Below, in pieces: positions 259-43,019 of a stretch of 43,019 nt of DNA. The translations under genes and the position numbers were made by a program. Source of the DNA: a virus; the UHGV virus genome UHGV-0172637. One strand, 5' to 3'. Numbering within the stretch: the first letter of the stretch is position 1; each line of letters starts with the position of its first letter. A model generated the notes under the pieces. The model did not search any database. It was not told where the DNA came from and saw nothing but the letters and a program-made list of their open reading frames with translations.

Positions 259-451
259 ACCGCTTATAAAACGCTGAGAGCCGCGCAATTGCTGGTATTA
301 GGTACTATTCGCATGTATAAACAAACAGTGCTTTTTTAGCAAAATCTGCTCTATATACATCAATGACTTAGGTGGTGGTTTCTCCCCATGTTTGAATAGT
401 TTCGAAAAGTTGTGTGACATAATGCCAGAACAAACTACTAGAGGCTGGATA

Positions 452-1303
452 ATGAAAAAAAGAACTAAAAAAGGCAGTAACATCCGTTTTCGAGAACACA
501 CTGAGGTCGAGAGGTCTTACATTAGTCTTTATAAGATATTCTGCCGCGCTTGTGAAATTTCTGCAGTCATATCACTGAATCAAAGCGGAATTAAGACCGA
601 CGGCAGGGGGATACGGGCTGCAAATATTTTCACTCGTCAAGTGTTGACTGCGCATAGTCTTAAGAAACTACTGCCAGTACTGCGAAACGGAGATAATCCC
701 GATGATACAGTTTGGGATGTAACCACTATCGCACTTGTGTCCAGAAGTGTGATGGAAAATTTTCAGGCGCTTTTTTATTACGGCACGGAAACGGTCTCGG
801 AAGCGGAGGCTGACTTTCGTTTTCGAATTTTCCAAAAAGACAGAAATGTTAAATGGCGTGATATCAGACTGAAGGCTGGTGAATCTGAAGAATCACTGGA
901 GGAGTTTTTCACTGGCATACCAAAGCAGCAGGAGGAGATAGTGAACCATGAATTCTATAGTTCACTGTCTAAAGAACAAAAGAATAGTCTCAAAAACAGG
1001 GCCGAAATGTATTATACCAAAGCTGAGTTTGAAGCTCGCTGCCCGCGGTTAGCTGATATTGCACTACATCACCAATTACTATCAAATCTAGCCCATCCAT
1101 TGCCACTGGCTATCCATAGGATTGATGAATTTAGCGGTCATGGTTCACCCAGTGAAGCAGACATCTGCTTAGTCATAATATCCCTGAAGGTTGCTACAGA
1201 CTGCCTAATTGCGTCAGTTGAGGGAATGGGCGAAAAATTTGCCGATAGTATCGGTATACTTTATCGGTCAATGATTGAAGAACTCTCCAATTACTCACTT
1301 TGA
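452..1303 (+). CDS. Hypothetical protein, att-proximal accessory gene (283 aa from the RBS-supported ATG)
   Basis: ORF 392-1303 in track; internal ATG at 452 preceded by AGAGG RBS; no motif I recognise; lies between att core and the convergent integrase gene. Confidence 0.5.
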   Translation: MKKRTKKGSNIRFREHTEVERSYISLYKIFCRACEISAVISLNQSGIKTDGRGIRAANIFTRQVLTAHSLKKLLPVLRNGDNPDDTVWDVTTIALVSRSVMENFQALFYYGTETVSEAEADFRFRIFQKDRNVKWRDIRLKAGESEESLEEFFTGIPKQQEEIVNHEFYSSLSKEQKNSLKNRAEMYYTKAEFEARCPRLADIALHHQLLSNLAHPLPLAIHRIDEFSGHGSPSEADICLVIISLKVATDCLIASVEGMGEKFADSIGILYRSMIEELSNYSL

Positions 1304-2876: not shown

Positions 2877-4115
2877 TTACTTTTTCATCACCTTTTCAGC
2901 AACACCAGCAATTGCCTCAAGTCCATCAAACATTGCTGGTATATTATTTTCATTGTTTTGTATTGGACTAAAAATAAGAGCATCAAAAGAGTCTAAAACT
3001 TTCTCAATAGCAATGTTATTTTTTCTTCTATATTCAACATACCCATCAATGAAAGCACATAAGCTGAGCCTTAGATCAATCTGCATAAGTTGAGTTCTTA
3101 AAGCCTTCGCTTCTAAATATGAAAGTCTGAAAAAATAAATAATTGCCATCTCAATAGTAATAAATGGGAATAGAATGAAGATCGCTGAATAATCTTTAGG
3201 ATATAAATCAGGGAAAGAAAAATGGATTATTACAGCAATCACAGGAGCAATGAATACAGTCCCAAATAAATTTTTATAATTCATTTCAGTTGTAGAAAGC
3301 TCTTTCTCTTTTTTTTCTTTTATTATGTTAAAACCAGAGCTTAACCCAACAAAATTATACTCTGATTTTAAATTTCTCACACGCTCCTCTAGTGCCTTAA
3401 TTTCATCCCTTGATTCATCCACGTATTTTAAATTAGCATCTGCTTCTAGTTTTCCATCTACAATAGCTTTTTTAATGTCATTATAATTATCAGATATTAA
3501 TGATATGGATGCTTTAGTGTCTTTGTTAATTTTATCAATAGCCAAATCTAAGTTGCTAGAAATTTCATCGAGAAACTTCCGTTTGTTTTCGTCGAGGTCT
3601 GATATAAAGTTTCTAGCATCAGTTAGTTTGTTACTGTTTAGTAACCACTTCATAAGTGAAATAGGTAGTTTGTCTCGAATCCATGAAAATTGGTATTTAC
3701 CTTCATTATCCTTGAAAGTGTTTTCTAATAATGTCAATTTGCTGTCTGTGATAAAGTTAGGCGTGATAATGGAACGAGTGCCTGTCCAATAATAGTACTC
3801 GTACAATACTCTTAACAAGGTTGACAAAAAATCAATCTTGTCTTTCTTGTAATCGTCAACTTGAAATTCCATGTGCAACAATATATTGTCTTGATTAAAA
3901 CCTGTATTCTCATCTAAATGTTGTGGGTTGTTATTTATTATTGATATAAAAGTCGACCATGCTGAGTCCAATGTAGTATAGAATAAAGATATGCTATTAT
4001 CTTTCTTTTTGGCGGATTTCTTGGACATTTCTTCAAACCTAATAAGATCTCTACTAATTATAGTATTTGTTTCCTTTATTGAATTAAGTATTTTATTATC
4101 GCTATATAGTCCCAT
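2877..4115 (-). CDS. Hypothetical membrane-anchored protein (coiled-coil region, two C-terminal TM helices), AT-rich accessory gene
   Basis: 412 aa; Lys/Asn/Ile-rich, visibly AT-rich DNA; hydrophobic segments LFGTVFIAPVIAVIIHF and YSAIFILFPFITIEMAIIYFF; heptad-like segment DESRDEIKALEERVRNLKSE. Confidence 0.6.
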   Translation of the reverse strand: MGLYSDNKILNSIKETNTIISRDLIRFEEMSKKSAKKKDNSISLFYTTLDSAWSTFISIINNNPQHLDENTGFNQDNILLHMEFQVDDYKKDKIDFLSTLLRVLYEYYYWTGTRSIITPNFITDSKLTLLENTFKDNEGKYQFSWIRDKLPISLMKWLLNSNKLTDARNFISDLDENKRKFLDEISSNLDLAIDKINKDTKASISLISDNYNDIKKAIVDGKLEADANLKYVDESRDEIKALEERVRNLKSEYNFVGLSSGFNIIKEKKEKELSTTEMNYKNLFGTVFIAPVIAVIIHFSFPDLYPKDYSAIFILFPFITIEMAIIYFFRLSYLEAKALRTQLMQIDLRLSLCAFIDGYVEYRRKNNIAIEKVLDSFDALIFSPIQNNENNIPAMFDGLEAIAGVAEKVMKK

Positions 4116-5491: not shown

Positions 5492-5998
5492 TTTACCCTC
5501 GTTATGGCGGCTGCCACCGCCGAACTTTCTCCATACACAACAGAGAAGGGCACCTGCATTTGTCGGCGACTGCAATCGCCATCCTCTTGCCCTGGTGGAT
5601 TGGGTTATGAGCCCGTCGCCCGGTGATGCCCTTTTCTGTTGTGCCCTGAAAAAGGCTGGCGGTTACCGGACAAATGGGAAAACACCGGGCCGCCAGAACA
5701 GGGAGTTACTTGTTATTGCTTTGGCCTGCTTTTAACCACATCAGGCGCGGTGGTAGGTATCTTCGGGCGGGGTGCTAAGGGGGTGATTAGCCCTTGCCCT
5801 TAACACTCCTGCTGGTTTTGGTATTCCTGGCTTGGGTATCGCCACCAGCTATAGGAATTTGACTACGAGTTGCGGTTAATCAGGCCGCGCCTCTGTTACC
5901 CCTCCCGAAGACACCTGTCAGCTAATCATCCGGTTATTCATATGCCACCGGCGGCTACTTCGTGGGCGTCCTGCCTGTTCGCTGTTTGTTTATTTAAT

Positions 5999-6085: not shown

Positions 6086-6732
6086 TTATAAATCCATTAT
6101 CACTTGTCTTACTAATCCGACCAAACGGCAGTTGCCGTTTACCTCGAGCATCCTGTAGTTGGGATTGAGAGGTACAAGGTATTTAAGCGGACCATCAATG
6201 ACGAATTTTTTTATAGTGGCTTCGTCACTTCCCATTAGCTGAGCAATGACAATTTTACCATTTGCTTGGCTGGCATCTCCAAAGTCAGGTTCTACGACGA
6301 CGAGAGAGCCCTCCGGGATGCTTGGTGCGCCATTTGGGTTAGTCATTGAGTCACCGCGGACTATTAGTGCAAAAGCGCTCTCTGAAACAGCTGCTGAAGT
6401 GTAAACCCAGTCTTGAATGTCTCGTTCCGTTATCGCACCACTATTGGCAGTCCATTCCCCGGCTTGCACCCACGTTAAAACGGGAACTGATCTAATTCCG
6501 AATCTCTGCTCTGGGTTCATTGTTGGCGGTTGTTGTTTCCCGTCATCCTTACCCTCCAGCAACCACTGCGGTGTCTTTTCAAGAGCAGCAGCAAGCGCCT
6601 GAAGGTTCTCACCGCCAGGTTTATAGTCACCAGATTCCCAGCCGGTGATCGTGACGCGGTTTACCCCGACAAGCTTTGCCAGGACAGATTGCGTCATCTT
6701 CAGCTCTTTTCGTCTGCTTCGGATTCGATCAT
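6086..6732 (-). CDS. Prophage repressor, cI/LexA-like (HTH + S24 peptidase domain)
   Basis: N-terminal XRE-type HTH (MTQSVLAKLVGVNRVTITGWESG), C-terminal S24 autopeptidase signature (RGDSM ... K); start taken at ATG 6732 rather than track start 6820. Confidence 0.9.
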
Positions 6733-6797
6733 TCATTTTCATGTAGGCAATCCTACCATTTTCTAATGTAGGAGTGCTTGACCATTTTATGTAAGAT
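6732..6797 (+). promoter_or_regulatory. Rightward early promoter/operator region (OR/pR-like) with three operator-like sites
   Basis: Sites TGTAGGCAATCCTACC (6732-6747), TGTAGGAGTGCTTGAC (6757-6772), TGTAAGATATCCTACT (6780-6795); TTGACC (6768-6773) - 18 nt - TACTAT (6792-6797) upstream of cro-like gene. Confidence 0.6.
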
Positions 6798-6841
6798 ATC
6801 CTACTATTTATGCACTGCATGACCTAACTCCAGAGGGAAAA

Positions 6842-7986: not shown

Positions 7987-8833
7987 ATTAACCGGCTACG
8001 TATGGGATGGTTGCGCGGCGTCGGGCATGAAGTTGTCTAGTGTCGCGATCATGGCTCGCCTCGCTGATTTCAGCAGCGATGAGGGAGTGTGCTGGCCGTC
8101 CATTGAAACTATTGCTCGCCAGCTTGGCGCAGGGCCGAGCACTATCAGAACGGCAATCGCAAAGCTTGAAAAAGATGGCTGGCTCACGCGTACACAGCGC
8201 CGTAATGGTAACCGTAATGCGTCGAACGTGTACCGCCTGAATGTGGCGAAACTTCAGGCTGCCGCATTTTCTCAACTGTCAGATTCTGACACGTCAAAAT
8301 CTGACGCATCAAATTTTGACGCCTCAAAAACTGACCCGTCGAAATCTGGCAAAAACGGCGGTTTTGACCCGTCAGAATCTGGCGGGGATCCGTCAGTAAA
8401 ATCAAAACAAGATCCACAAGTAACTTCAAAACCCTCTTGTCCGGTTGCGGCGCAACCAGACCCTGAAGTCGTGATTACTGATCAGGCAATTTTGGTTCTG
8501 ACCCATTTGAACCAGATCAGCGGATCCCGGTATCAGAAATCAAAAACATCCCTGGAGAACATCCGTGCCCGACTGCGTGAGGGATACAGCGTTGCAGACC
8601 TGCAACTTGTTATCGACCTGAAGCATGAGCACTGGCACGAGAACGACGAGCAGTACCAGTACATGCGCCCGGAAACGCTGTTCGGCCCGAAGAAATTCGA
8701 GAGCTATCTGCAAAGCGCTACCCGCTGGGAGCAGAAGGGACGGCCTAAACGTGCTGACTGGGGAGCGAAAAAGCGCGATGTGATGGCTTTTGGTCCGGTT
8801 GAAACAACGATTCCAGAGGGGTTCAGAGGATGA
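7976..8833 (+). CDS. Replication initiation protein (lambda O-like) with internal origin iterons
   Basis: N-terminal winged-helix region, low-complexity middle encoded by the iterons, conserved phage C-terminal domain. Confidence 0.75.
   Translation: MSTKLTGYVWDGCAASGMKLSSVAIMARLADFSSDEGVCWPSIETIARQLGAGPSTIRTAIAKLEKDGWLTRTQRRNGNRNASNVYRLNVAKLQAAAFSQLSDSDTSKSDASNFDASKTDPSKSGKNGGFDPSESGGDPSVKSKQDPQVTSKPSCPVAAQPDPEVVITDQAILVLTHLNQISGSRYQKSKTSLENIRARLREGYSVADLQLVIDLKHEHWHENDEQYQYMRPETLFGPKKFESYLQSATRWEQKGRPKRADWGAKKRDVMAFGPVETTIPEGFRG
8285..8402 (+). repeat. Origin iterons: about six direct repeats of ~15-18 bp (consensus TGACNCNTCAAAAWC) followed by an AT-rich stretch
   Basis: tctgacacgtcaaaatc / tgacgcatcaaatttt / tgacgcctcaaaaac / tgacccgtcgaaatc / ttgacccgtcagaatc / ccgtcagtaaaatc read directly in sequence. 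Confidence 0.75.
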
Positions 8834-9711: not shown

Positions 9712-11638
9712 GATTATCGTTGATAACTTTGCTGGTGGCGGTGGTGCATCAACGGGTATTGAACTGGCGATCGGACGCAGCGTGGATATTGCGATCAACC
9801 ACGACGAAAACGCCATTGCGATGCACAAGACGAACCACCCTGACACACTGCATTACTGTGAATCCGTATTTGACGTGGATCCGGTAGCCGCCACCGGCGG
9901 CAATCCTGTTGGCCTGGCATGGTTTAGCCCAGACTGCCGACACTTCTCAAAGGCCAAAGGCGCAAAGCCTGTGAAAAAAGAGATACGCGGTCTGGCCTGG
10001 ATCGTTCTGCGTTGGGCACTGGCGAAGCGACCGCGCGTGATGATGCTGGAGAACGTGGAAGAGTTTAAAACGTGGGGACCGCTGCTGGCCGATGAAATGC
10101 GTCCAGACCCTGCCCGCACTGGCGAAACATTCAATGCTTTTGTCGGCATGCTTTCCACTGGCATTCCTGCCGATCACCCGGCACTGGCGGAGGTCTGCGA
10201 ATTTCTTGCTATTGATCCTGGCAGCACGCAGGCCAAACAGCTGGTGGAAGGGCTTGGATATGATGTTGATTATCGCGAACTGCGCGCGTGTGATTACGGC
10301 GCGCCGACGATCCGCAAACGCTTCTTCATGGTTATGCGCTGCGATGGTTGCCCTATTCAGTGGCCTGTTGTAACCCATGGGGATCCCAAGTCACTGGAGG
10401 TGCAGAGCGGCAGGCTGATGCCATGGCGTACCGCTGCGGAATGTATCGACTGGAATGTTCCGGCTCTGTCCATCTTCGACCGCAAAAAACCGCTGGCGGA
10501 GAACACTCTGAAGCGGATCGCACGCGGCATACAGCGCTTTGTTATCGAAAGTGCGTCGCCGTTTATCGTGAAGTGCAACCACACGAGCTCAAAAAATGCG
10601 TATGACGCTTTTCGCGGACAGTCACTGAATGAGCCATTACAGACCATTACTAAAAAACTCGGCTACGCGTTAGCCGTTCCACACCTTACAAAATTCCGCA
10701 CTGGCGCAACCGGGCAGCCCGTTACCGAACCTGTTCCGACAGTAACCGCTGGCACGTCAAAACGCCCGGGCGGGAACGGGCATGCTCTCGGGATTGTTGA
10801 GGCTGCATTGACACCATTCCTGGCGGGTAATGGTGGTAGTGAATACCAGGCTAAACCGCGCCCGCTGAATAAACCTGCTCATACCATTCTGAAGCAATCC
10901 CGAGCCTGTCTTGTTGCGCCAGTGATAGCCCGCCAGTTTGGGGCCAGCGTCGGCCACCGTGCAGACGAACCGAGCGCAACCATCACCGCTGGTGGTGGAG
11001 GTAAATCTCAACTGGTAACGCCTACGCTGATTCAGATGGGTTATGGCGAACGACCTGGACAAGAACCGCGTGTGCTGCGACTGGATAACCCGCTGGGGAC
11101 CGTTACTGCAGGCGGAAATAAATTTGCGACGGTGAGCGCGTTCCTGGCGAAACACTACGGCGGTAACTATACGGGGCCGGGTGTCAGTATGGATGAACCC
11201 GCGCATTCAGTGACCACTGTCGACCATCATGCGGTAGTTGCCTCTCATCTGGTGAAACTGCGTGGAACATGCCGCGATGGGCAACGCCTTGATGTGCCAA
11301 TGCCAACAATCACTGCTGGTGGCCAACACGTGGGTGAGGTACGCACATTTCTCGAGACGTATTGCGGGGAAAGTGACGATGAATGGCTGGTAACGATCGA
11401 TGGGGTTAAATACCAGATCGTTGATATCGGAATGCGCATGTTGCAGCCGCATGAACTCTACAAAGCGCAGGGCTTCCCGGATGGTTACGTTATTGATCAG
11501 GACTACCGTGGAAATCGCTATGCAAAAGATAAGCAGGTAGCCCGCTGCGGTAATGCGGTACCACCACCATTCGCCAGGGCGCTGGTTGAGGCAAATCTTC
11601 CGGAACTGTGTGCAGTGCAACAGCAGGAGGTGGCATGA
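9704..11638 (+). CDS. DNA cytosine-5 methyltransferase, large form with repeated target-recognition-like segments
   Basis: Motif I FAGGGGAS, Cys motif SPDCRHFS, ENV motif MLENVEEF, RKRFFMV, C-terminal RCGNAV; five repeats of a P-x-P-T-[VI]-T-A-G-G-like segment in the variable region. Confidence 0.75.
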   Translation: MREIIVDNFAGGGGASTGIELAIGRSVDIAINHDENAIAMHKTNHPDTLHYCESVFDVDPVAATGGNPVGLAWFSPDCRHFSKAKGAKPVKKEIRGLAWIVLRWALAKRPRVMMLENVEEFKTWGPLLADEMRPDPARTGETFNAFVGMLSTGIPADHPALAEVCEFLAIDPGSTQAKQLVEGLGYDVDYRELRACDYGAPTIRKRFFMVMRCDGCPIQWPVVTHGDPKSLEVQSGRLMPWRTAAECIDWNVPALSIFDRKKPLAENTLKRIARGIQRFVIESASPFIVKCNHTSSKNAYDAFRGQSLNEPLQTITKKLGYALAVPHLTKFRTGATGQPVTEPVPTVTAGTSKRPGGNGHALGIVEAALTPFLAGNGGSEYQAKPRPLNKPAHTILKQSRACLVAPVIARQFGASVGHRADEPSATITAGGGGKSQLVTPTLIQMGYGERPGQEPRVLRLDNPLGTVTAGGNKFATVSAFLAKHYGGNYTGPGVSMDEPAHSVTTVDHHAVVASHLVKLRGTCRDGQRLDVPMPTITAGGQHVGEVRTFLETYCGESDDEWLVTIDGVKYQIVDIGMRMLQPHELYKAQGFPDGYVIDQDYRGNRYAKDKQVARCGNAVPPPFARALVEANLPELCAVQQQEVA

Positions 11639-15093: not shown

Positions 15094-16146
15094 ATGAAAA
15101 ATACTGTAAAAATAAACAGTGTTGAGTTAATCAACGCTGACAGCCTGCATTACGTCGCCACCCTCCCGGATAACTCTATTGATCTGATAGTTACGGATCC
15201 GCCTTACTTCAAAGTGAAGCCCAACGGCTGGGACAACCAATGGAAGGGGGACGAGGACTACTTACGCTGGCTTGATAGCTGTCTGGCTGAGTATGCTCGC
15301 GTTCTTAAACCTGCTGACAGCATTTACCTGTTTTGTGGTCACCGACTGGCCTCAAATATAGAGATTATGATGCGTGCCCGGTTCAACGTTTTGAATCACA
15401 TCATTTGGGCAAAACCATCGGGTCGCTGGAATGGATGTAACAAAGAAAGCCTGCGTGCGTACTTTCCATCTACGGAACGGATTTTGTTTGCTGAGCTCTA
15501 TCTTGGGCCGTACACAGGTAAAGAGGATGTTTACGAAAGGAAAAGCACAGAGCTAAAGCAGCACATTATGACGCCGCTGATTGATTACTTCCGTAATGCC
15601 CGTGAATCACTGGGTGTCAGCTCGAAAGAAATAGCTGAGGCAACCGGAAAGAAAAACATGGCGTCACACTGGTTCGGTGCAAGCCAATGGCAACTACCAA
15701 ATGAAGTGGACTATAGAAAATTGCAGGAACTGTTCACTCGGATCGCTATCGATAAGCACATTCAGCAGAAGCTTGAACATCCTCACCACCAGCTGATAGC
15801 TACCTATCAGTCATTAAACCGCAAGTATTCAGAATTGCTGGAGGAATACAAAACCCTCCGGCGCTGCTTTTCTGTTTCCGCTCTTGTTCCGTATACCGAC
15901 GTATGGACGCATAAACCTGTTCAGTTTTATCCAGGCAAACATCCATGCGAAAAACCTGCCGACATGCTGAAGCAGATCATTAGCGCCAGCAGCAGGCCGG
16001 GGGATATTGTTGCCGATTTCTTTATGGGCTCTGGTTCAACTGTGAAAGCAGCAATAGAACTTGGCCGTCGGGCGATCGGCGTAGAACTGGAGGAAGACAG
16101 GTTTATACAGACCACCGAAGAGGTGGAAAAACTGAAAAAATCATAA
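15094..16146 (+). CDS. DNA methyltransferase, beta-class (N6-adenine or N4-cytosine)
   Basis: DPPY motif near N-terminus (LIVTDPPYF) and SAM-binding FFMGSGST near C-terminus (beta-class motif order); third MTase in the prophage. Confidence 0.7.
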   Translation: MKNTVKINSVELINADSLHYVATLPDNSIDLIVTDPPYFKVKPNGWDNQWKGDEDYLRWLDSCLAEYARVLKPADSIYLFCGHRLASNIEIMMRARFNVLNHIIWAKPSGRWNGCNKESLRAYFPSTERILFAELYLGPYTGKEDVYERKSTELKQHIMTPLIDYFRNARESLGVSSKEIAEATGKKNMASHWFGASQWQLPNEVDYRKLQELFTRIAIDKHIQQKLEHPHHQLIATYQSLNRKYSELLEEYKTLRRCFSVSALVPYTDVWTHKPVQFYPGKHPCEKPADMLKQIISASSRPGDIVADFFMGSGSTVKAAIELGRRAIGVELEEDRFIQTTEEVEKLKKS

Positions 16147-17751: not shown

Positions 17752-18195
17752 ATGACTACACGGAATGATGTTATGTCAGAAGTTGCAGCGGAGCTAGCCG
17801 AGCAGACTTGGCCTGATTTTTATCCAAAAGGTGTTCCCCCAAAAACGGCTGTGGATGCCGAGGGTGAGTTTTATCGTTTGGTTAGAGCTAACCCCCCGAC
17901 TCCAAATTGTTTCCTTTCTACCCATGAAGAGTATCCGAATAGACATAAAAAATGTCGTGGAGAAGCTCTTCAGTGCGTATATGGCACATCTTTTTTTTCA
18001 GAAGAAAGAGGTGCTACAGATGCAAAGGCTAAGTTTCCAGCGGCGTTAGGTGATCGTACCGTCGCTAAAGGTAACGTAATGCCATTCATGGGGGTCATGA
18101 AAAAGACTTTTGCGGATCCTGCTCACTATACAATATGGCTTACGGTAAATTGTTCTATCCATGAGCATTTTGCTTGTTTAGGAGAAGGCGAATGA
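17752..18195 (+). CDS. Hypothetical protein A of two-gene cassette (Cys/His-rich, possible metal-binding)
   Basis: 147 aa; C68-x6-C75 and C134-x2-H-x-H-x2-C142 patterns; no recognisable enzymatic motif; stop overlaps start of next gene (ATGA). Confidence 0.55.
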   Translation: MTTRNDVMSEVAAELAEQTWPDFYPKGVPPKTAVDAEGEFYRLVRANPPTPNCFLSTHEEYPNRHKKCRGEALQCVYGTSFFSEERGATDAKAKFPAALGDRTVAKGNVMPFMGVMKKTFADPAHYTIWLTVNCSIHEHFACLGEGE

Positions 18196-19484
18196 GTAAC
18201 GTTTTTCTGCCTAATACAATGATGGGGACTCTGCGCTATAAAAGGGTGTATGAGTTTTTCGAAGAGCCTCGTTTCTTTTCAGCAGAGAATGAAGTTAGTT
18301 CATTATTTGTTGTTTATTGGATTGGTGAGGATGAGGACGCCGATAGCTGGTATGTTATCCCTGTATCGCCGACACGATTGGAGTTAATTGAAAGAAAAAG
18401 AATTGATTTGCGTTCAGTTTTAATTGATCAGGAACAGTCTTTTTTCTACGAAGTACGCGCTCCTTATGATCGGGAGGTTGCACCTACATGGAATGTTAAA
18501 GGCGTAGATGCCGTCTATGAAAATGCTTTACCAGCTCAGGGACTGTTTATTAGCTCTGTGGTTCCTGTTTTAGAAAATGGTCGAATCGGTGAAGCAATTA
18601 AGTATTCAACACATGAGATTCATTTAGAAAAAAGCTCAAAGAAAAGTGCTGGAAATTTGGTGCTAAGTCACGTTTCGAATGTGTGTGATAGCTTTAGTGC
18701 GTTATATGACAGTTTGCTGGAGTTTAGCGGTCTCAAAGACAAGCTACGTCCAGTTGATGCTCGTCCTGGTTCGTTCATCCTTTCATTCCAAGCTGAAAAG
18801 CTGAACGCCTATGAAGAGATTTTACGTGATTTGAGCGCTCTGATTGAGCGTCGTGCTGATATAGTCGATTTCATACAAAACAATGGGATAGATATCCAAG
18901 CCTTTTCTGATTTGCTTCAGTCTATTGTATCGACTGGAACAAATATGGAATTAAAAAGCAATCAGACTGGTGAGGTTATATTTCTGCTGACTAAAGCAGG
19001 AGCTGAGTTCTATCTTAGGGTAATCAGTAGGATGTCTGCACTTGCAGTTAGTGGTCATCAAATTCCGCAGGCAGATACTTTAGAAAAAGTTTTTAAAGTA
19101 GTTGAAGTCAAATGGAGTGGGGAGCCTTGTACTGTAGAGAATACAGGTTTGCAAGAAAGACACGTTTATTATTACCTACATGCTGCAAAGGTATTAGGGT
19201 TTCTGAATGCTAATGGCAATGTAACTGCGATGGGGCAAAAGTTAATTCAGTCTGGACAAGAGAACCAATATAAAATTGCTGCAAGATGCTTTGAGGTGAG
19301 CCATATTGGTTGGGCTTGGATTAACTGGTCAGAAGTTGAGAATTTATCTCAAATAGATCCAGATACAGCTGAGAAATTTTTACTTGAACAGTGCAATTCA
19401 TTAAGTAAAGACACTATAGCCAGAAGGTCGCGAACTCTTAGACATTGGGGCAAAGAGCTTAAGGAAAAATATACTCCGCTCTAA
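18192..19484 (+). CDS. Hypothetical protein B of two-gene cassette (430 aa)
   Basis: ATG 18192 preceded by GGAGAAGG RBS; visibly AT-rich; no P-loop or nuclease motif recognised. Confidence 0.6.
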   Translation: MSNVFLPNTMMGTLRYKRVYEFFEEPRFFSAENEVSSLFVVYWIGEDEDADSWYVIPVSPTRLELIERKRIDLRSVLIDQEQSFFYEVRAPYDREVAPTWNVKGVDAVYENALPAQGLFISSVVPVLENGRIGEAIKYSTHEIHLEKSSKKSAGNLVLSHVSNVCDSFSALYDSLLEFSGLKDKLRPVDARPGSFILSFQAEKLNAYEEILRDLSALIERRADIVDFIQNNGIDIQAFSDLLQSIVSTGTNMELKSNQTGEVIFLLTKAGAEFYLRVISRMSALAVSGHQIPQADTLEKVFKVVEVKWSGEPCTVENTGLQERHVYYYLHAAKVLGFLNANGNVTAMGQKLIQSGQENQYKIAARCFEVSHIGWAWINWSEVENLSQIDPDTAEKFLLEQCNSLSKDTIARRSRTLRHWGKELKEKYTPL

Positions 19485-34491: not shown

Positions 34492-34545
34492 CCATGTTGT
34501 AATTACGCTATAGGTAATAAGCCTAATATCAAGGTGATAGGGTAT

Positions 34546-35262
34546 ATGAAGAAATTATATGTTTTGTTACTCAGTACAGTTTTGATTTCTGGGATGAGTC
34601 ACGCCGAAAATGGTTATATTCCTGTATTATATAATCTATCAACTATGTTCGATTTTAATCCTGTTAAAGGACCAGTGAAATCACTTAGTACTATAGTGGA
34701 GAGTAATGGCAAGGTTACTTATAAAGTATTATTAAAGCTAAATAAAAAAGGTTGTATTGAAAGCCTGAGCTTGGATAATATTTCAAATGGCTTTAAAACA
34801 GAACTTAATAATGATGGGGTAAATCTTGTAGGCAAGAGAGGTGAAAACCCGTACTTTGTTGGTCTAACGGAAGATTGTAATATTCTTTCTCAGAATGATA
34901 ATGGTGAGAAAAATACATTCTCTCTCACAGCAAGTGGAATGATTAAAGATACTTATTATTTAGGCCAAAAAATAGCAACGCATTTTTATGATGATAATGA
35001 TAATTTAATACGCTCTGAGTTTTATGGCTCAGATAAAATTTTGTCCAGTAATGAAGTTATTTATTTAGATAAAAATACTAAACCTCTTGACTACAAGATT
35101 ATAAACGAAAGTAGCTATGCACAAGGATATACTGCTACAACAACTTGTAAATACAACGCGAAACTTGTTCCAGAGTTATGTAATCTGATAATACAGAATG
35201 CAGGGAATCCGCTTCCTAAACCGACAGTAATTACAGCACATACAAGCGTGGAATTTTATTAA
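34546..35262 (+). CDS. Secreted hypothetical protein, AT-rich accessory gene between tail genes I and J
   Basis: 238 aa; Sec signal peptide MKKLYVLLLSTVLISGMSHA; Asn/Lys/Tyr-rich; ends in aromatic residue; own terminator. Confidence 0.65.
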   Translation: MKKLYVLLLSTVLISGMSHAENGYIPVLYNLSTMFDFNPVKGPVKSLSTIVESNGKVTYKVLLKLNKKGCIESLSLDNISNGFKTELNNDGVNLVGKRGENPYFVGLTEDCNILSQNDNGEKNTFSLTASGMIKDTYYLGQKIATHFYDDNDNLIRSEFYGSDKILSSNEVIYLDKNTKPLDYKIINESSYAQGYTATTTCKYNAKLVPELCNLIIQNAGNPLPKPTVITAHTSVEFY

Positions 35263-40717: not shown

Positions 40718-40897
40718 TTCTGCTCTGGACCATCAAAGTGCAATGTCATAAAGCGAAATAACAGGGTGGGATCTGCCGCAACCATACCGTATGCAAGAGT
40801 ATGGCTGCGGCCGACTGGCGAACGTTCGATAGTGCGAGTACTGAATGATTGCCAGTCGCAGCGGATTGTACTTAAGCAATATGACGGTTCAAGGCGT

Positions 40898-41140
40898 TTA
40901 ATCTGAAACCAGCCACATATCAGCCTCTTCAAACATTTCCTGAACAGTACGGCTTATCTGTTCCTTCTCATGCTTGCTGGCGTCAGTGTTGATCGCCGGC
41001 AGTGTCATCATCGGTTTTACCCGGACATCAGCATCAGGGAAGACCCGGTGAACCCTCTTAGTCAATTCGCCCAGAATGATATCTTTTGCACCGGGCAGAC
41101 CATCAAAATTCCTTTTGCCATAAACGAGTTCTATGAACTT
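40898..41140 (-). pseudogene. dinI: DinI-family gene lacking a canonical start codon
   Basis: Minus-strand frame encodes KFIELVYGKRNFDGLPGAKDIILGELTKRVHRVFPDADVRVKPMMTLPAINTDASKHEKEQISRTVQEMFEEADMWLVSD, collinear with E. coli DinI as recalled; AAG (41138-41140) or ATA (41132-41134) occupies the expected ATG position; no SD. Confidence 0.6.
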
Positions 41141-41165
41141 ATAAGTGATGTGAGAATGGCAGAGT

Positions 41166-41894
41166 CTAATGTTTGTCCGATGATGTGAGTTGCTGCAAAC
41201 ATATATGTTCAGGATGCGGCCTGGATGCTATTTTTTTCCCTGAAGCGGAAAACATTACTACTGTACCTTTAACCCTGGTTTTAACATTCTCGAAATGCTC
41301 TGAAAGTATTTGTTTTAACCCTTCTTTGGAATCTTCGGTGTTTGAAAAGATGCCTTTCTGATTGTATATGCTCATCAGTTTTTTACCGAAGGTATTATGC
41401 ACAACGCCATCACCAACAATTGTGGCGCCATACAGAGTACCATCGTCAGTTAAGGCCTGCGCCGCATTGCGTATTACACAGGTTTTTGTCGATATATTTC
41501 CAGGCAGGCAGTGAAGAAGGTAAAACATTGAAATGGAATCAAATTGACCATGCAATGCTGCGGGATAAGGTTCAAAAACATCATGGCAAATTTTATGTTG
41601 AATTTTTGACTTTCCAGCCCTTGTTGATGCAGCGTTCAGGCTAGCTTCGTTCAAATCCATTAGAGATTTCAAACCACTTTCAGGTACGTGAGTAAGGTAA
41701 AACCCAGTTCCAACACCAATATCCAGATGGTTGTTACCTAAATGTTCCAGAAAGTGTGGAAGAAGGTATTCCTTTGTAGGGCATCCCCATGCAAGTCGAT
41801 TTGATACACCCAAAACCCACCAGTCATAAAGTTTTAGTGTGAATGGTGTGTAAACTTTAGCCCCATCATCTGTGTTTTTTTTCATTAATTTCAC
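41166..41894 (-). CDS. Class I SAM-dependent methyltransferase (small-molecule/protein type, not an obvious DNA MTase)
   Basis: Motif I LDIGVGTGFY; 242 aa; AT-rich 5' half. Confidence 0.6.
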   Translation of the reverse strand: MKLMKKNTDDGAKVYTPFTLKLYDWWVLGVSNRLAWGCPTKEYLLPHFLEHLGNNHLDIGVGTGFYLTHVPESGLKSLMDLNEASLNAASTRAGKSKIQHKICHDVFEPYPAALHGQFDSISMFYLLHCLPGNISTKTCVIRNAAQALTDDGTLYGATIVGDGVVHNTFGKKLMSIYNQKGIFSNTEDSKEGLKQILSEHFENVKTRVKGTVVMFSASGKKIASRPHPEHICLQQLTSSDKH

Positions 41895-41985
41895 CGTGTT
41901 ATAGTTTTGGTCATGAATTAAATCAATAATGGCGATGAATTACAAGGGGTTAAATGATGCCACGACGTAGCGATATTGAAATGGC

Positions 41986-42300
41986 TTGGCATGCTTCGAC
42001 ATGCGGGCATCGCGTTCACATTTCGGGGAAGGGATACTCCAGGGTGCGCTGCTTGTGGTAGATGCATCACTTTCTGCCTGCGATGGCTCACTGCTGATAT
42101 GTGCAATCGACGGGGAGTTCAGGATCAAACGATATCGAACACATCCTCAACCCCACCTGATTAATCTGGAGAGCGGGAGAAGGGAGGTGCTACCAGTAGA
42201 TGATGACGGTTACGGTTCTGCACCCGCTATATTCGGGGTGATTACTTACATCATTAATGATGCCAGGAACGCGGAGTTTGATGATTGTCCGGTGATGTAA
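41986..42300 (+). CDS. UmuD-prime-like S24 peptidase-fold protein lacking the N-terminal arm
   Basis: 104 aa; aligns to UmuD C-terminal domain (LLVVDASLSACDGSLLICAIDGEFRIKRY...IFGVITYII); upstream frame does not encode a UmuD N-terminus. Confidence 0.55.
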   Translation: MACFDMRASRSHFGEGILQGALLVVDASLSACDGSLLICAIDGEFRIKRYRTHPQPHLINLESGRREVLPVDDDGYGSAPAIFGVITYIINDARNAEFDDCPVM

Positions 42301-42969
42301 TCATATTGGCGTTATTAGTTCGGCCCCCTGATTTTTCACATTCCCAACGGCACGCGTTACGGCGTGCCATATAAATTTATCAGCCGGCACAACACCGTCG
42401 GCTGCAATTTCCGCTGCTTCTTTCCCTCCAACATCCTGCCTCATCCATTCGCGCGCGGCTTCCGGTAGCAGTATCAGCGGTCGTCTGTCGTGAATATCAA
42501 CCAGTCCTTTGTCAGCTGCAGCTGTAACTATCAGGAAACCTTCTGCTTCATCTCCACGTTCAAATGGTGTGCTGCCAATCGCCGCCATAAATATCGGCTG
42601 ACCATCGGCCCGATGAATGAAGTAAGGCTGCTTCGTGTCACCTTCCTTTTTCCATTCGTACCATCCATCAGCAAAGCAAATTGCACGACCGTGCTGCCAG
42701 AGTGGTTTAAACATTCTGCTGGTGGCCGCAGTTTCAGATCGAGCATTAATTAGCGGTGGCTTATCCCACCATCCAGGGGCATATCCCCAAATGACAGGGT
42801 CAAGGTGCAGTTGTTCATCACGTTCGCTCAGAAGCAAAACTTTTGTTCCTGGCGCTACGTTGAATCTTCCGATGGGTTCTGGATCGTATGGAATGTCGCG
42901 TTCTGATTCATCAGCGAGCAGGGCAAGATAATCTTCACGCGTCATTGACTGTGCAAAGCGTCCACACAT
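42301..42969 (-). CDS. SOS response-associated peptidase (SRAP/YedK family)
   Basis: 222 aa beginning MCGRF (catalytic Cys2), conserved SRAP signature throughout. Confidence 0.85.
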   Translation of the reverse strand: MCGRFAQSMTREDYLALLADESERDIPYDPEPIGRFNVAPGTKVLLLSERDEQLHLDPVIWGYAPGWWDKPPLINARSETAATSRMFKPLWQHGRAICFADGWYEWKKEGDTKQPYFIHRADGQPIFMAAIGSTPFERGDEAEGFLIVTAAADKGLVDIHDRRPLILLPEAAREWMRQDVGGKEAAEIAADGVVPADKFIWHAVTRAVGNVKNQGAELITPI

Positions 42970-43019
42970 AGAAACCTCCAGCCGTATGTCAGACTGAAAG
43001 TATAGGGCAGTAAGAAAAA

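Follow-up and report, generated by a model that had tools for sequence, protein, structure and literature searches.

Two genes converge at the right end of the window, by which we mean the whole 43,019-nucleotide stretch of viral DNA that was analyzed (UHGV-0172637). On the plus strand, the list of open reading frames gives a small ORF of 104 amino acids with a TTG start (41986-42300); on the minus strand lies an intact gene of the SRAP/YedK type, encoding 222 amino acids that begin MCGRF (42301-42969). The TAA of the small ORF (42298-42300) directly abuts a TCA (42301-42303), which is the complement of the TGA of the SRAP gene. A sequence-only reading of this DNA had described the small ORF as UmuD-related with an S24 fold and its neighbor as a convergent SRAP/YedK-family gene whose stop codon it touches. 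Profile searches bear out both assignments (E=5e-46 for the HumD model and E=3.7e-11 for the UmuD subfamily model in the first case, PF02586 over the full model in the second), and the abutment of the stops is exact in the sequence. Further to the left, on the minus strand, are a methyltransferase cassette and a gene of the DinI family; the latter had been grouped with the two convergent genes as a DNA-damage-response cluster.

The left end of the window is host flank (positions 1-175, for which no E. coli match was found), followed by the 3′ part of a tRNA-Pro gene. Repeat matching places attL in this fragment, as one copy of a 55-bp exact direct repeat on the minus strand at 204-258; ARAGORN found no complete tRNA in the window, positions 204-258 being a partial tRNA-Pro only. 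An integrase (1397-2575), a CI-like HTH-S24 repressor (6086-6820) and lambda-like tail genes come next. To the right, the window is continued by two near-identical metagenome contigs that carry the identical SRAP protein (L003 and L004, 99.98% and 100% identity), and positions past the window end are given here in coordinates extended along these contigs. A second exact copy of the 55-bp att core lies at extended 43240-43294, 270 nt beyond the start of the SRAP gene; the region upstream of that gene (minus strand, starting with 42970-43019) runs 270 nt, past the window end, to this attR repeat. The gene order on the contigs, outward from SRAP, is an intact tRNA-Pro(GGG) (L003 9647-9723, adjoining yejM), yejM, yejL, yejK and rplY. 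The right att site had been supposed to lie outside the window, which is the case, and rightward extension to a second tRNA-Pro/att copy had been proposed as the way to tell prophage cargo from host DNA; with the copy found, that question is settled as cargo. Both the small ORF and the SRAP gene are located between the direct repeats and, with the att copy and the intact tRNA-Pro(GGG) following 270 nt past the start of SRAP, are the last cargo genes of a prophage of ~43 kb in proL. In related prophages, the final gene ahead of the same att is humD, the family to which the small ORF is assigned below.

The SRAP gene matches its family models from end to end and above their cut-offs: PF02586 at E=3e-51 and 174.4 bits (positions 1-214 of 214) and NF007413/PRK09951 at 463.2 bits (cut-off 349; positions 1-222 of 222). 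Like E. coli YedK, whose human homologue is HMCES, the predicted protein has the full length of 222 amino acids; it is 87% identical to YedK (PDB 6kcq, 2icu), and alignment to 6kcq shows that the four catalytic residues are conserved, namely Cys2 directly after the initiator methionine, Asn75, Glu105 and His160. Related PDB entries are described as YedK (6kbs and 6nua) or as "abasic site processing protein YedK" (8d2m). Given this degree of identity and the established biochemistry of YedK and HMCES, we infer that its Cys2 becomes covalently linked, as a thiazolidine, to abasic sites in single-stranded DNA and that the protein thereby shields them. The window copy differs from YedK in its location: a lambdoid prophage carries it as att-proximal cargo, whereas YedK is encoded at the chromosomal yedK locus. 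A promoter-like site with a weak match to the consensus is located 87 nt upstream of the SRAP ATG (L003 9886-9914), and transcription of the gene probably starts at a promoter of its own beside attR.

The small ORF scores above the curated cut-off of the NCBIfam HumD equivalog model NF051876 (E=5.2e-46, 155.8 bits, cut-off 120), the match spanning profile positions 27-129 of 129 only. It also matches the UmuD' crystal and NMR chains 1umu, 1ay9 and 1i4v (E=3e-9), two PHROGs labeled "UmuD-like", of which phrog_811 is covered at positions 47-140 of 140, and, weakly, Pfam Peptidase_S24. Every one of these profile matches is N-terminally incomplete. In a MAFFT alignment with P1 HumD, N15 gp26, HK639 and UmuD, the GFPSPA arm that is kept by both UmuD' and HumD is absent. 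P1 HumD, N15 gp26 and HK639 gp28 begin at or near MGFPSPA, corresponding to Gly25 of UmuD', and HumD proteins extend from there for 129 amino acids; the window copy lacks residues 1-30, and its frame opens with five unrelated codons (M/L-A-C-F-D) ahead of the humD part. The modal length among 301 database homologues is likewise 129 amino acids. A scan for related loci, with one genome per species, returned ten loci, all of them from Citrobacter, and four of these (L009-L012) encode an intact 129-residue HumD that is 89-91% identical to the small ORF over the shared part; carriers of the intact gene are Citrobacter portucalensis, C. meridianamericanus, C. braakii and C. freundii. The family, HumD within the S24/UmuD line, is an already characterized one, whose name NCBI uses in relatives.

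These comparisons bear on the proposal that the ORF resembles an already processed UmuD'. The P1, N15 and HK639 proteins are 62-65% identical to the 99 codons retained in the window and share the same S24/UmuD' core fold. The N15 and HK639 genes also resemble the window copy in their placement at the end of the tail-fibre arm, by the att or partition region, and P1 humD resembles the intact Citrobacter genes in having an upstream LexA box. In contrast to these HumD genes, the window copy has no start codon, ribosome-binding site or LexA-controlled promoter of its own. The annotation of the P1 record states that humD has a LexA site and functionally complements UmuD'. McLenigan and colleagues are said to have reported such complementation by P1 HumD in 1999. 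A naturally pre-processed UmuD' is therefore a known idea, embodied by HumD, and the window ORF is shorter still. Relative to E. coli UmuD and UmuD' (1umu, 1ay9, 1i4v, 8gmt), it has a homologous core with 31% identity, but the homologous part begins only at about UmuD residue 54, so that not only the cleavable N-terminal segment of 24 residues but also the UmuD' arm (residues 25-39) is missing, and no umuC partner gene adjoins it. The resemblance to processed UmuD' accordingly does not hold: UmuD' and HumD keep the arm from G25/MGFPSPA, and the ORF starts some 30 residues further in. The residues at the positions of UmuD Ser60 and Lys97 are retained, as the S of SRSHF and the K of RIKRY; these positions are not strictly defining, since they vary among HumD proteins (N15 and HK639 have Thr, and HK639 has Met).

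The missing N-terminus is explained by a deletion. Breakpoints were placed by BLAST of the window against L009 (C. portucalensis), L011 (another Citrobacter locus) and L001 (E. coli strain AH01), and the junction sequences were checked. Window positions 42000-42302 correspond to L009 6012-6315, and the 288 bp that precede this segment in relatives (L009 5724-6011) are gone at a junction between 41999 and 42000; the same break is seen against strain AH01. The humD gene starts at L009 5923, so the deletion takes its nucleotides 1-89 together with the ribosome-binding site and the ATG. The loss comprises codons 1-30 with the MGFPSPA arm, cuts into the first core strand (at TYF) and covers most of a small ORF further upstream. 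What remains of humD (42000-42300, plus strand) starts with the last nucleotide of codon 30 and runs through codons 31-129 to the TAA. The loss of humD nucleotides 1-89 in this deletion is why the ORF starts so far in, and the view that it is not a remnant of a longer gene fails, the remnant having arisen by deletion rather than by frameshift. On the other side of the junction are the first 46 nt of the small upstream ORF (41954-41999, plus strand; 91% identity to L009 5678-5723), which has kept its start (ATGATG, at 41954) and, just ahead of it, the ribosome-binding site AAGGGG. In relatives this ORF encodes 80 amino acids, and its match to phrog_3893 (E=1.3e-36) spans positions 1-78 of 79. 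Some records present it as a tail-fibre-assembly fragment, an assignment that we rejected, as it is a full-length member of phrog_3893, a family of unknown function.

The fusion of the small phage ORF to humD is out of frame and yields a 35-residue ORF (41954-42061), so the humD frame is left with only two possible starts, the TTG at 41986 and an internal ATG at 42001 (Met31). No Shine-Dalgarno sequence was found ahead of either, and no promoter-like site was found on the plus strand upstream of the remnant; the frame has no start codon, ribosome-binding site or LexA promoter of its own. This arrangement is not an assembly artefact, because two independent metagenome contigs carry it at 99.98-100% identity. 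The 99 codons contain no internal stop or frameshift, and dN/dS relative to the intact relatives is 0.07-0.18, a value that does not tell a functional gene from a dead one, since the sequences diverged for the most part before the deletion. One substitution, R to G, is specific to the lineage of the window; R occupies this site in P1 HumD as well as in the close HumD relatives from Citrobacter and E. coli. Since the deletion took the arm, part of the first core strand, the ribosome-binding site and the start codon, the 104-residue ORF is best read as a recently made pseudogene remnant of humD and not as a mimic of UmuD', and it is presumably not expressed. Some expression or residual activity, for example in heterodimers, may nevertheless be conceived of, because the 99 codons are open, dN/dS is low, the Ser60 and Lys97 residues are kept and the Met31 ATG is in frame.

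Damage of a similar kind was found in dinI. A DinI-family ORF is indeed present upstream (40898-41065, minus strand; PF06183, E=2.5e-18), as the sequence-only reading had it, but it is truncated at its 5′ end and has lost its start codon, the profile match being confined to positions 13-63 of 63. Comparison with relatives shows that codons 2-80 and the stop are conserved (40898-41140, minus strand), and that the start codon, in which the methyltransferase cassette has its left edge, now reads AAG instead of ATG: where relatives begin MFVELVYDK, the window reads YKFIELVYGK with no start. The sole in-frame start left is a TTG at 41065, giving 55 amino acids, and a complete DinI of ~80 residues with its own start codon is not encoded. 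Window positions 40774-41138 correspond to L009 5236-5600, which contains dinI, and homology to the relatives stops at 41138. From there to 41953 the minus strand carries an 815-bp cassette (41139-41953; delimited by BLAST against L009, L011 and L001) with a gene for a ybcY-like class I SAM methyltransferase (41166-41894, or 41166-41885 if read from an ATG). The product gives matches to Methyltransf_12, Methyltransf_25 and Methyltransf_11, and matches phrog_2132 at E=5e-144. At the DNA level the cassette is ~91.7% identical to the ybcY-type cassette of E. coli lambdoid phages and DLP12-type prophages, where it adjoins tail-fibre-assembly remnants.

In the window, the cassette stands in place of 77 bp (L009 5601-5677) that form the intergenic region between dinI and humD in relatives and contain LexA boxes there. 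The two genes are divergent in the relatives and ~75-150 bp apart, and the gap holds a near-consensus LexA box (TACTGTATGGATATACAGTA in L011, with 2-3 mismatches to the 20-mer consensus) as well as a second, weaker one. A search of 40700-43330 (window plus extension) gave no site closer than 8 mismatches to the LexA consensus. Similarly, the motif CTGT-N8-ACAG occurs once in the whole window, at 15104, and nowhere near the locus. A CTG...CAG string upstream of SRAP was considered as a LexA box and rejected for its wrong spacing. By sequence, then, the SOS operator is gone, and both dinI and humD, two of the three proposed damage-response genes, are decapitated; the pair was wrecked because the cassette replaced the LexA-box region and the dinI ATG, and the deletion took the 5′ end of humD. 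The DNA-damage-response cluster has in this sense been dismantled, and the SRAP gene is its sole intact member.

Taken together, these observations are very probably explained by a mosaic stretch of prophage cargo in which humD and dinI were wrecked by two rearrangements, SRAP alone stayed intact and the abutment of the two stop codons is incidental. According to this model, the locus would be the right-arm cargo end of a lambdoid prophage of ~43 kb in the proL tRNA-Pro(GGG) of a Citrobacter-type host. The ancestral layout, kept in the relatives, would have been a divergent SOS-controlled pair, with dinI on one side of the LexA boxes and the phrog_3893 ORF and humD on the other, humD being an analogue of pre-processed UmuD' of the P1 HumD type that serves the UmuC of the host. 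An independent cassette with the YedK-type SRAP gene would have come to lie tail-to-tail against humD, just inside attR. In one rearrangement, the ybcY-like methyltransferase cassette would have replaced the 77-bp promoter region with its LexA boxes and removed the dinI ATG; in the other, the 288-bp deletion would have removed humD codons 1-30 with the ribosome-binding site and start codon. All of the components belong to characterized families (HumD/UmuD', YedK/SRAP, DinI and the ybcY-like methyltransferases). For annotation, the ORF should be labeled a humD pseudogene remnant, and dinI likewise a remnant, instead of a UmuD'-like gene, and an SOS mutagenesis module should not be credited to this prophage. 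What a lysogen is predicted to gain is an additional shield for abasic sites of the YedK type, along with a ybcY-like methyltransferase.

It may be argued that humD and SRAP were selected together as a damage-tolerance module, in which an accessory factor of Pol V is combined with a shield for abasic sites, the abutment, with convergent transcripts that overlap, is regulatory and the window copy is a decayed one. A statistical association links SRAP genes to umuDC, dinB and imuAB neighborhoods, and SRAP genes are also found in prophages (PMC3765255), phage PHB10 has umuDC ~2.4 kb from an SRAP gene that is next to the integrase, and the same abutting pair, at 92-96% DNA identity, occurs in e14-like prophages of E. 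coli. We surveyed 5426 complete E. coli genomes with a 401-bp probe across the humD-SRAP junction, however, and recovered the junction in only eight, all in e14-like prophages at icd, with humD annotated as frameshifted in every one. The other 17 matching genomes gave one-sided alignments, and the ones listed end at or near the stop/stop boundary. Furthermore, humD directly precedes the att in L015 (C. murliniae) and in L009 (C. portucalensis), with att-proximal sequence following within ~40 bp and an SRAP cassette of ~856 bp (about 42299-43154 extended) missing; in L011 and L014 the SRAP gene is 1.1-1.5 kb from humD, past an att fragment; and P1, N15 and HK639 have humD without SRAP. Because the breaks in homology fall exactly at the shared stop/stop boundary, they are as expected from the shuffling of cassettes at gene ends, and because the genes are convergent they do not constitute an operon. 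That SRAP should be found beside humD is thematically unsurprising, given the association of SRAP with umuDC and the prophage SRAP genes already described (PMC3765255). We therefore consider a co-selected module unlikely, and the abutting stops are best regarded as a mosaic cassette junction that is not a conserved unit and implies no functional coupling. The locus illustrates how prophages of Citrobacter and E. coli, integrated at different sites (proL, icd and the argW region), trade att-proximal cargo cassettes with breakpoints precisely between genes.

A second alternative grants the truncation but holds that its product, of 99-104 amino acids from Met31 or the TTG, is a functional mini-HumD, acting as a dominant-negative on the UmuD'2C of the host, and hence against mutagenesis, or as a modulator of the RecA filament. 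Its 99 conserved codons make up an uninterrupted frame that keeps the dimer-forming core, and UmuD' without its arm still dimerizes, although it fails entirely in SOS and MMS mutagenesis (PMC11791011); in models of the Pol V mutasome, the arm is predicted to insert near the active site of UmuC (PMC11791011). In addition, other N-terminally shortened HumD proteins recur, such as a 114-residue form beginning MGKKRI in Salmonella, E. coli and Kluyvera. Against this, nothing is left of the native promoter and its LexA box or of the ribosome-binding site and the start codon, neither the TTG at 41986 nor the ATG at 42001 is preceded by a Shine-Dalgarno sequence or promoter-like site, the deletion cuts into the first core strand at TYF, and an arginine shared by close relatives and P1 HumD has become glycine in this lineage. 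The 114-residue forms, moreover, are fossils at prophage/host junctions, sometimes located right behind a full-length copy. On balance we regard a functional short HumD as very unlikely. A database cluster of 99-residue proteins (P0005) was examined as a candidate conserved short form and rejected, being a contig-end artefact next to yfdC. More specifically, the 99-residue core might be made from Met31 through read-through or antisense-strand transcription over the methyltransferase cassette, pair with host UmuD' and dampen Pol V mutagenesis in the lysogen, or convergent transcription through the humD-SRAP junction, with its spacing of zero nucleotides, might tune SRAP; we hold this to be highly improbable. 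If it were so, the recurrent shortened HumD forms at prophage ends would be selected variants and not debris. Finally, that the two genes are host chromosomal flank instead of cargo, as could be supposed from the 87% identity of the SRAP protein to chromosomal E. coli YedK and from the absence of the right att site from the window itself, is scarcely credible when a copy of the attL core, the intact tRNA-Pro(GGG) and yejM are all found past the SRAP start, after 270 nt, on contigs of 99.98-100% identity, host flank begins only past attR, and related prophages end in humD before the same att.

Among the closest known counterparts is the e14-like dinI-humD-SRAP block of E. coli (at icd; for example in strains AH01 and Ecol_545), which has the same contiguous humD-SRAP junction and the same downstream sequence as the window. 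The block is ~92% identical in DNA to the segment from 42000 to extended 43291, and past the SRAP gene it still includes the tRNA-Pro att core as a fossil. Unlike the window, the E. coli copies retain dinI, the small ORF and the 5′ end of humD, and have neither the methyltransferase cassette nor the 288-bp deletion; they differ also in that a (CAGC)n tract in humD is expanded.

Two minor observations concern humD in other genomes. In Salmonella, the 114-residue HumD forms are fossils located near yfdC, where prophage meets host. In the e14-like humD of E. coli, the tract contains 9, 11, 11, 13 and 14 copies of CAGC in five genomes, as compared with 2-3 copies in intact genes, and the gene is in frame only at n=9; the tract thus looks like a slipped-strand on/off switch in a mutagenesis gene.

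A tetranucleotide tract, (CAGC)n, was found inside humD, the gene for a UmuD′ analogue of the phage P1 HumD type, at about codon 23 in E. coli e14-like prophages (8737-8780 in locus L001, from 937 in L027, and also in L002, L028 and L029). Its copy number in these five complete E. coli genomes is 11, 11, 9, 14 and 13, and the reading frame is kept only at n = 9 (strain fEC.1), where the product is a 137-aa HumD carrying the insert QPASQPASQPA. Intact Citrobacter humD genes have two to three copies of CAGC, and the part of the gene that bears the tract is deleted in the window copy. By its sequence, the tract looks like a slipped-strand, phase-variable on/off switch within a mutagenesis gene; to our knowledge, a tract of this kind in such a gene is unusual for E. 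coli.

A recurrent 114-aa form of HumD with a replaced N-terminus (beginning MGKKRIISQPAATYF) was observed in Salmonella enterica (loci L022-L026, 4001-4345; proteins P0082, P0053 and P0009). In these loci its gene is the final one before yfdC/mlaA, at the junction of prophage and host, and in two loci a full 127-aa S24 gene lies directly upstream; the S24 gene of L022 is itself adjoined by a gene for a 495-aa reverse transcriptase. The 114-aa form is probably a fossil from successive prophage replacement.

Downstream of the YedK-type SRAP gene, the e14-like element of E. coli strain AH01 (L001) carries, in two copies (approximately 10030-10081 and 11136-11266), sequence related by homology to a region of the proL-integrating Citrobacter phage, namely its tRNA-Pro att core and the stretch next to att. 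The AH01 element is integrated at icd. On sequence grounds, this is an att fossil brought into a prophage with another integration site.

In some relatives, an 80-aa ORF lies between the LexA boxes and humD (5678-5920 in the Citrobacter locus L009; its 5′ part corresponds to 41954-41999 of the window). The ORF belongs to phrog_3893, a conserved phage family without known function, and is optional, being missing from the Citrobacter loci L010 and L012. In E. coli DLP12-type prophages, too, the ybcY methyltransferase cassette is followed by the 5′ end of this ORF, which may thus have been the homology patch by which the cassette entered.

Near attL and the integrase are two cargo ORFs, of 412 aa (2877-4115, minus strand), within a 31% GC island, and of 303 aa (392-1303, plus strand), with the att core on one side and the integrase on the other; a Pfam search returned zero matches for both, and they are candidate defence or other accessory genes. 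Other accessory genes lie within the prophage. An N6/N4 DNA methylase gene (15094-16146, plus strand) has at its start the sole CTGT-N8-ACAG site in the whole window (15104-15119). A DUF6575+DUF7226 protein is encoded in a 41% GC patch (18174-19484, plus strand), and the gene for a functionally uncharacterised UPF0257 family protein (34534-35262, plus strand) interrupts the run of tail genes, where GC content falls to 39%.
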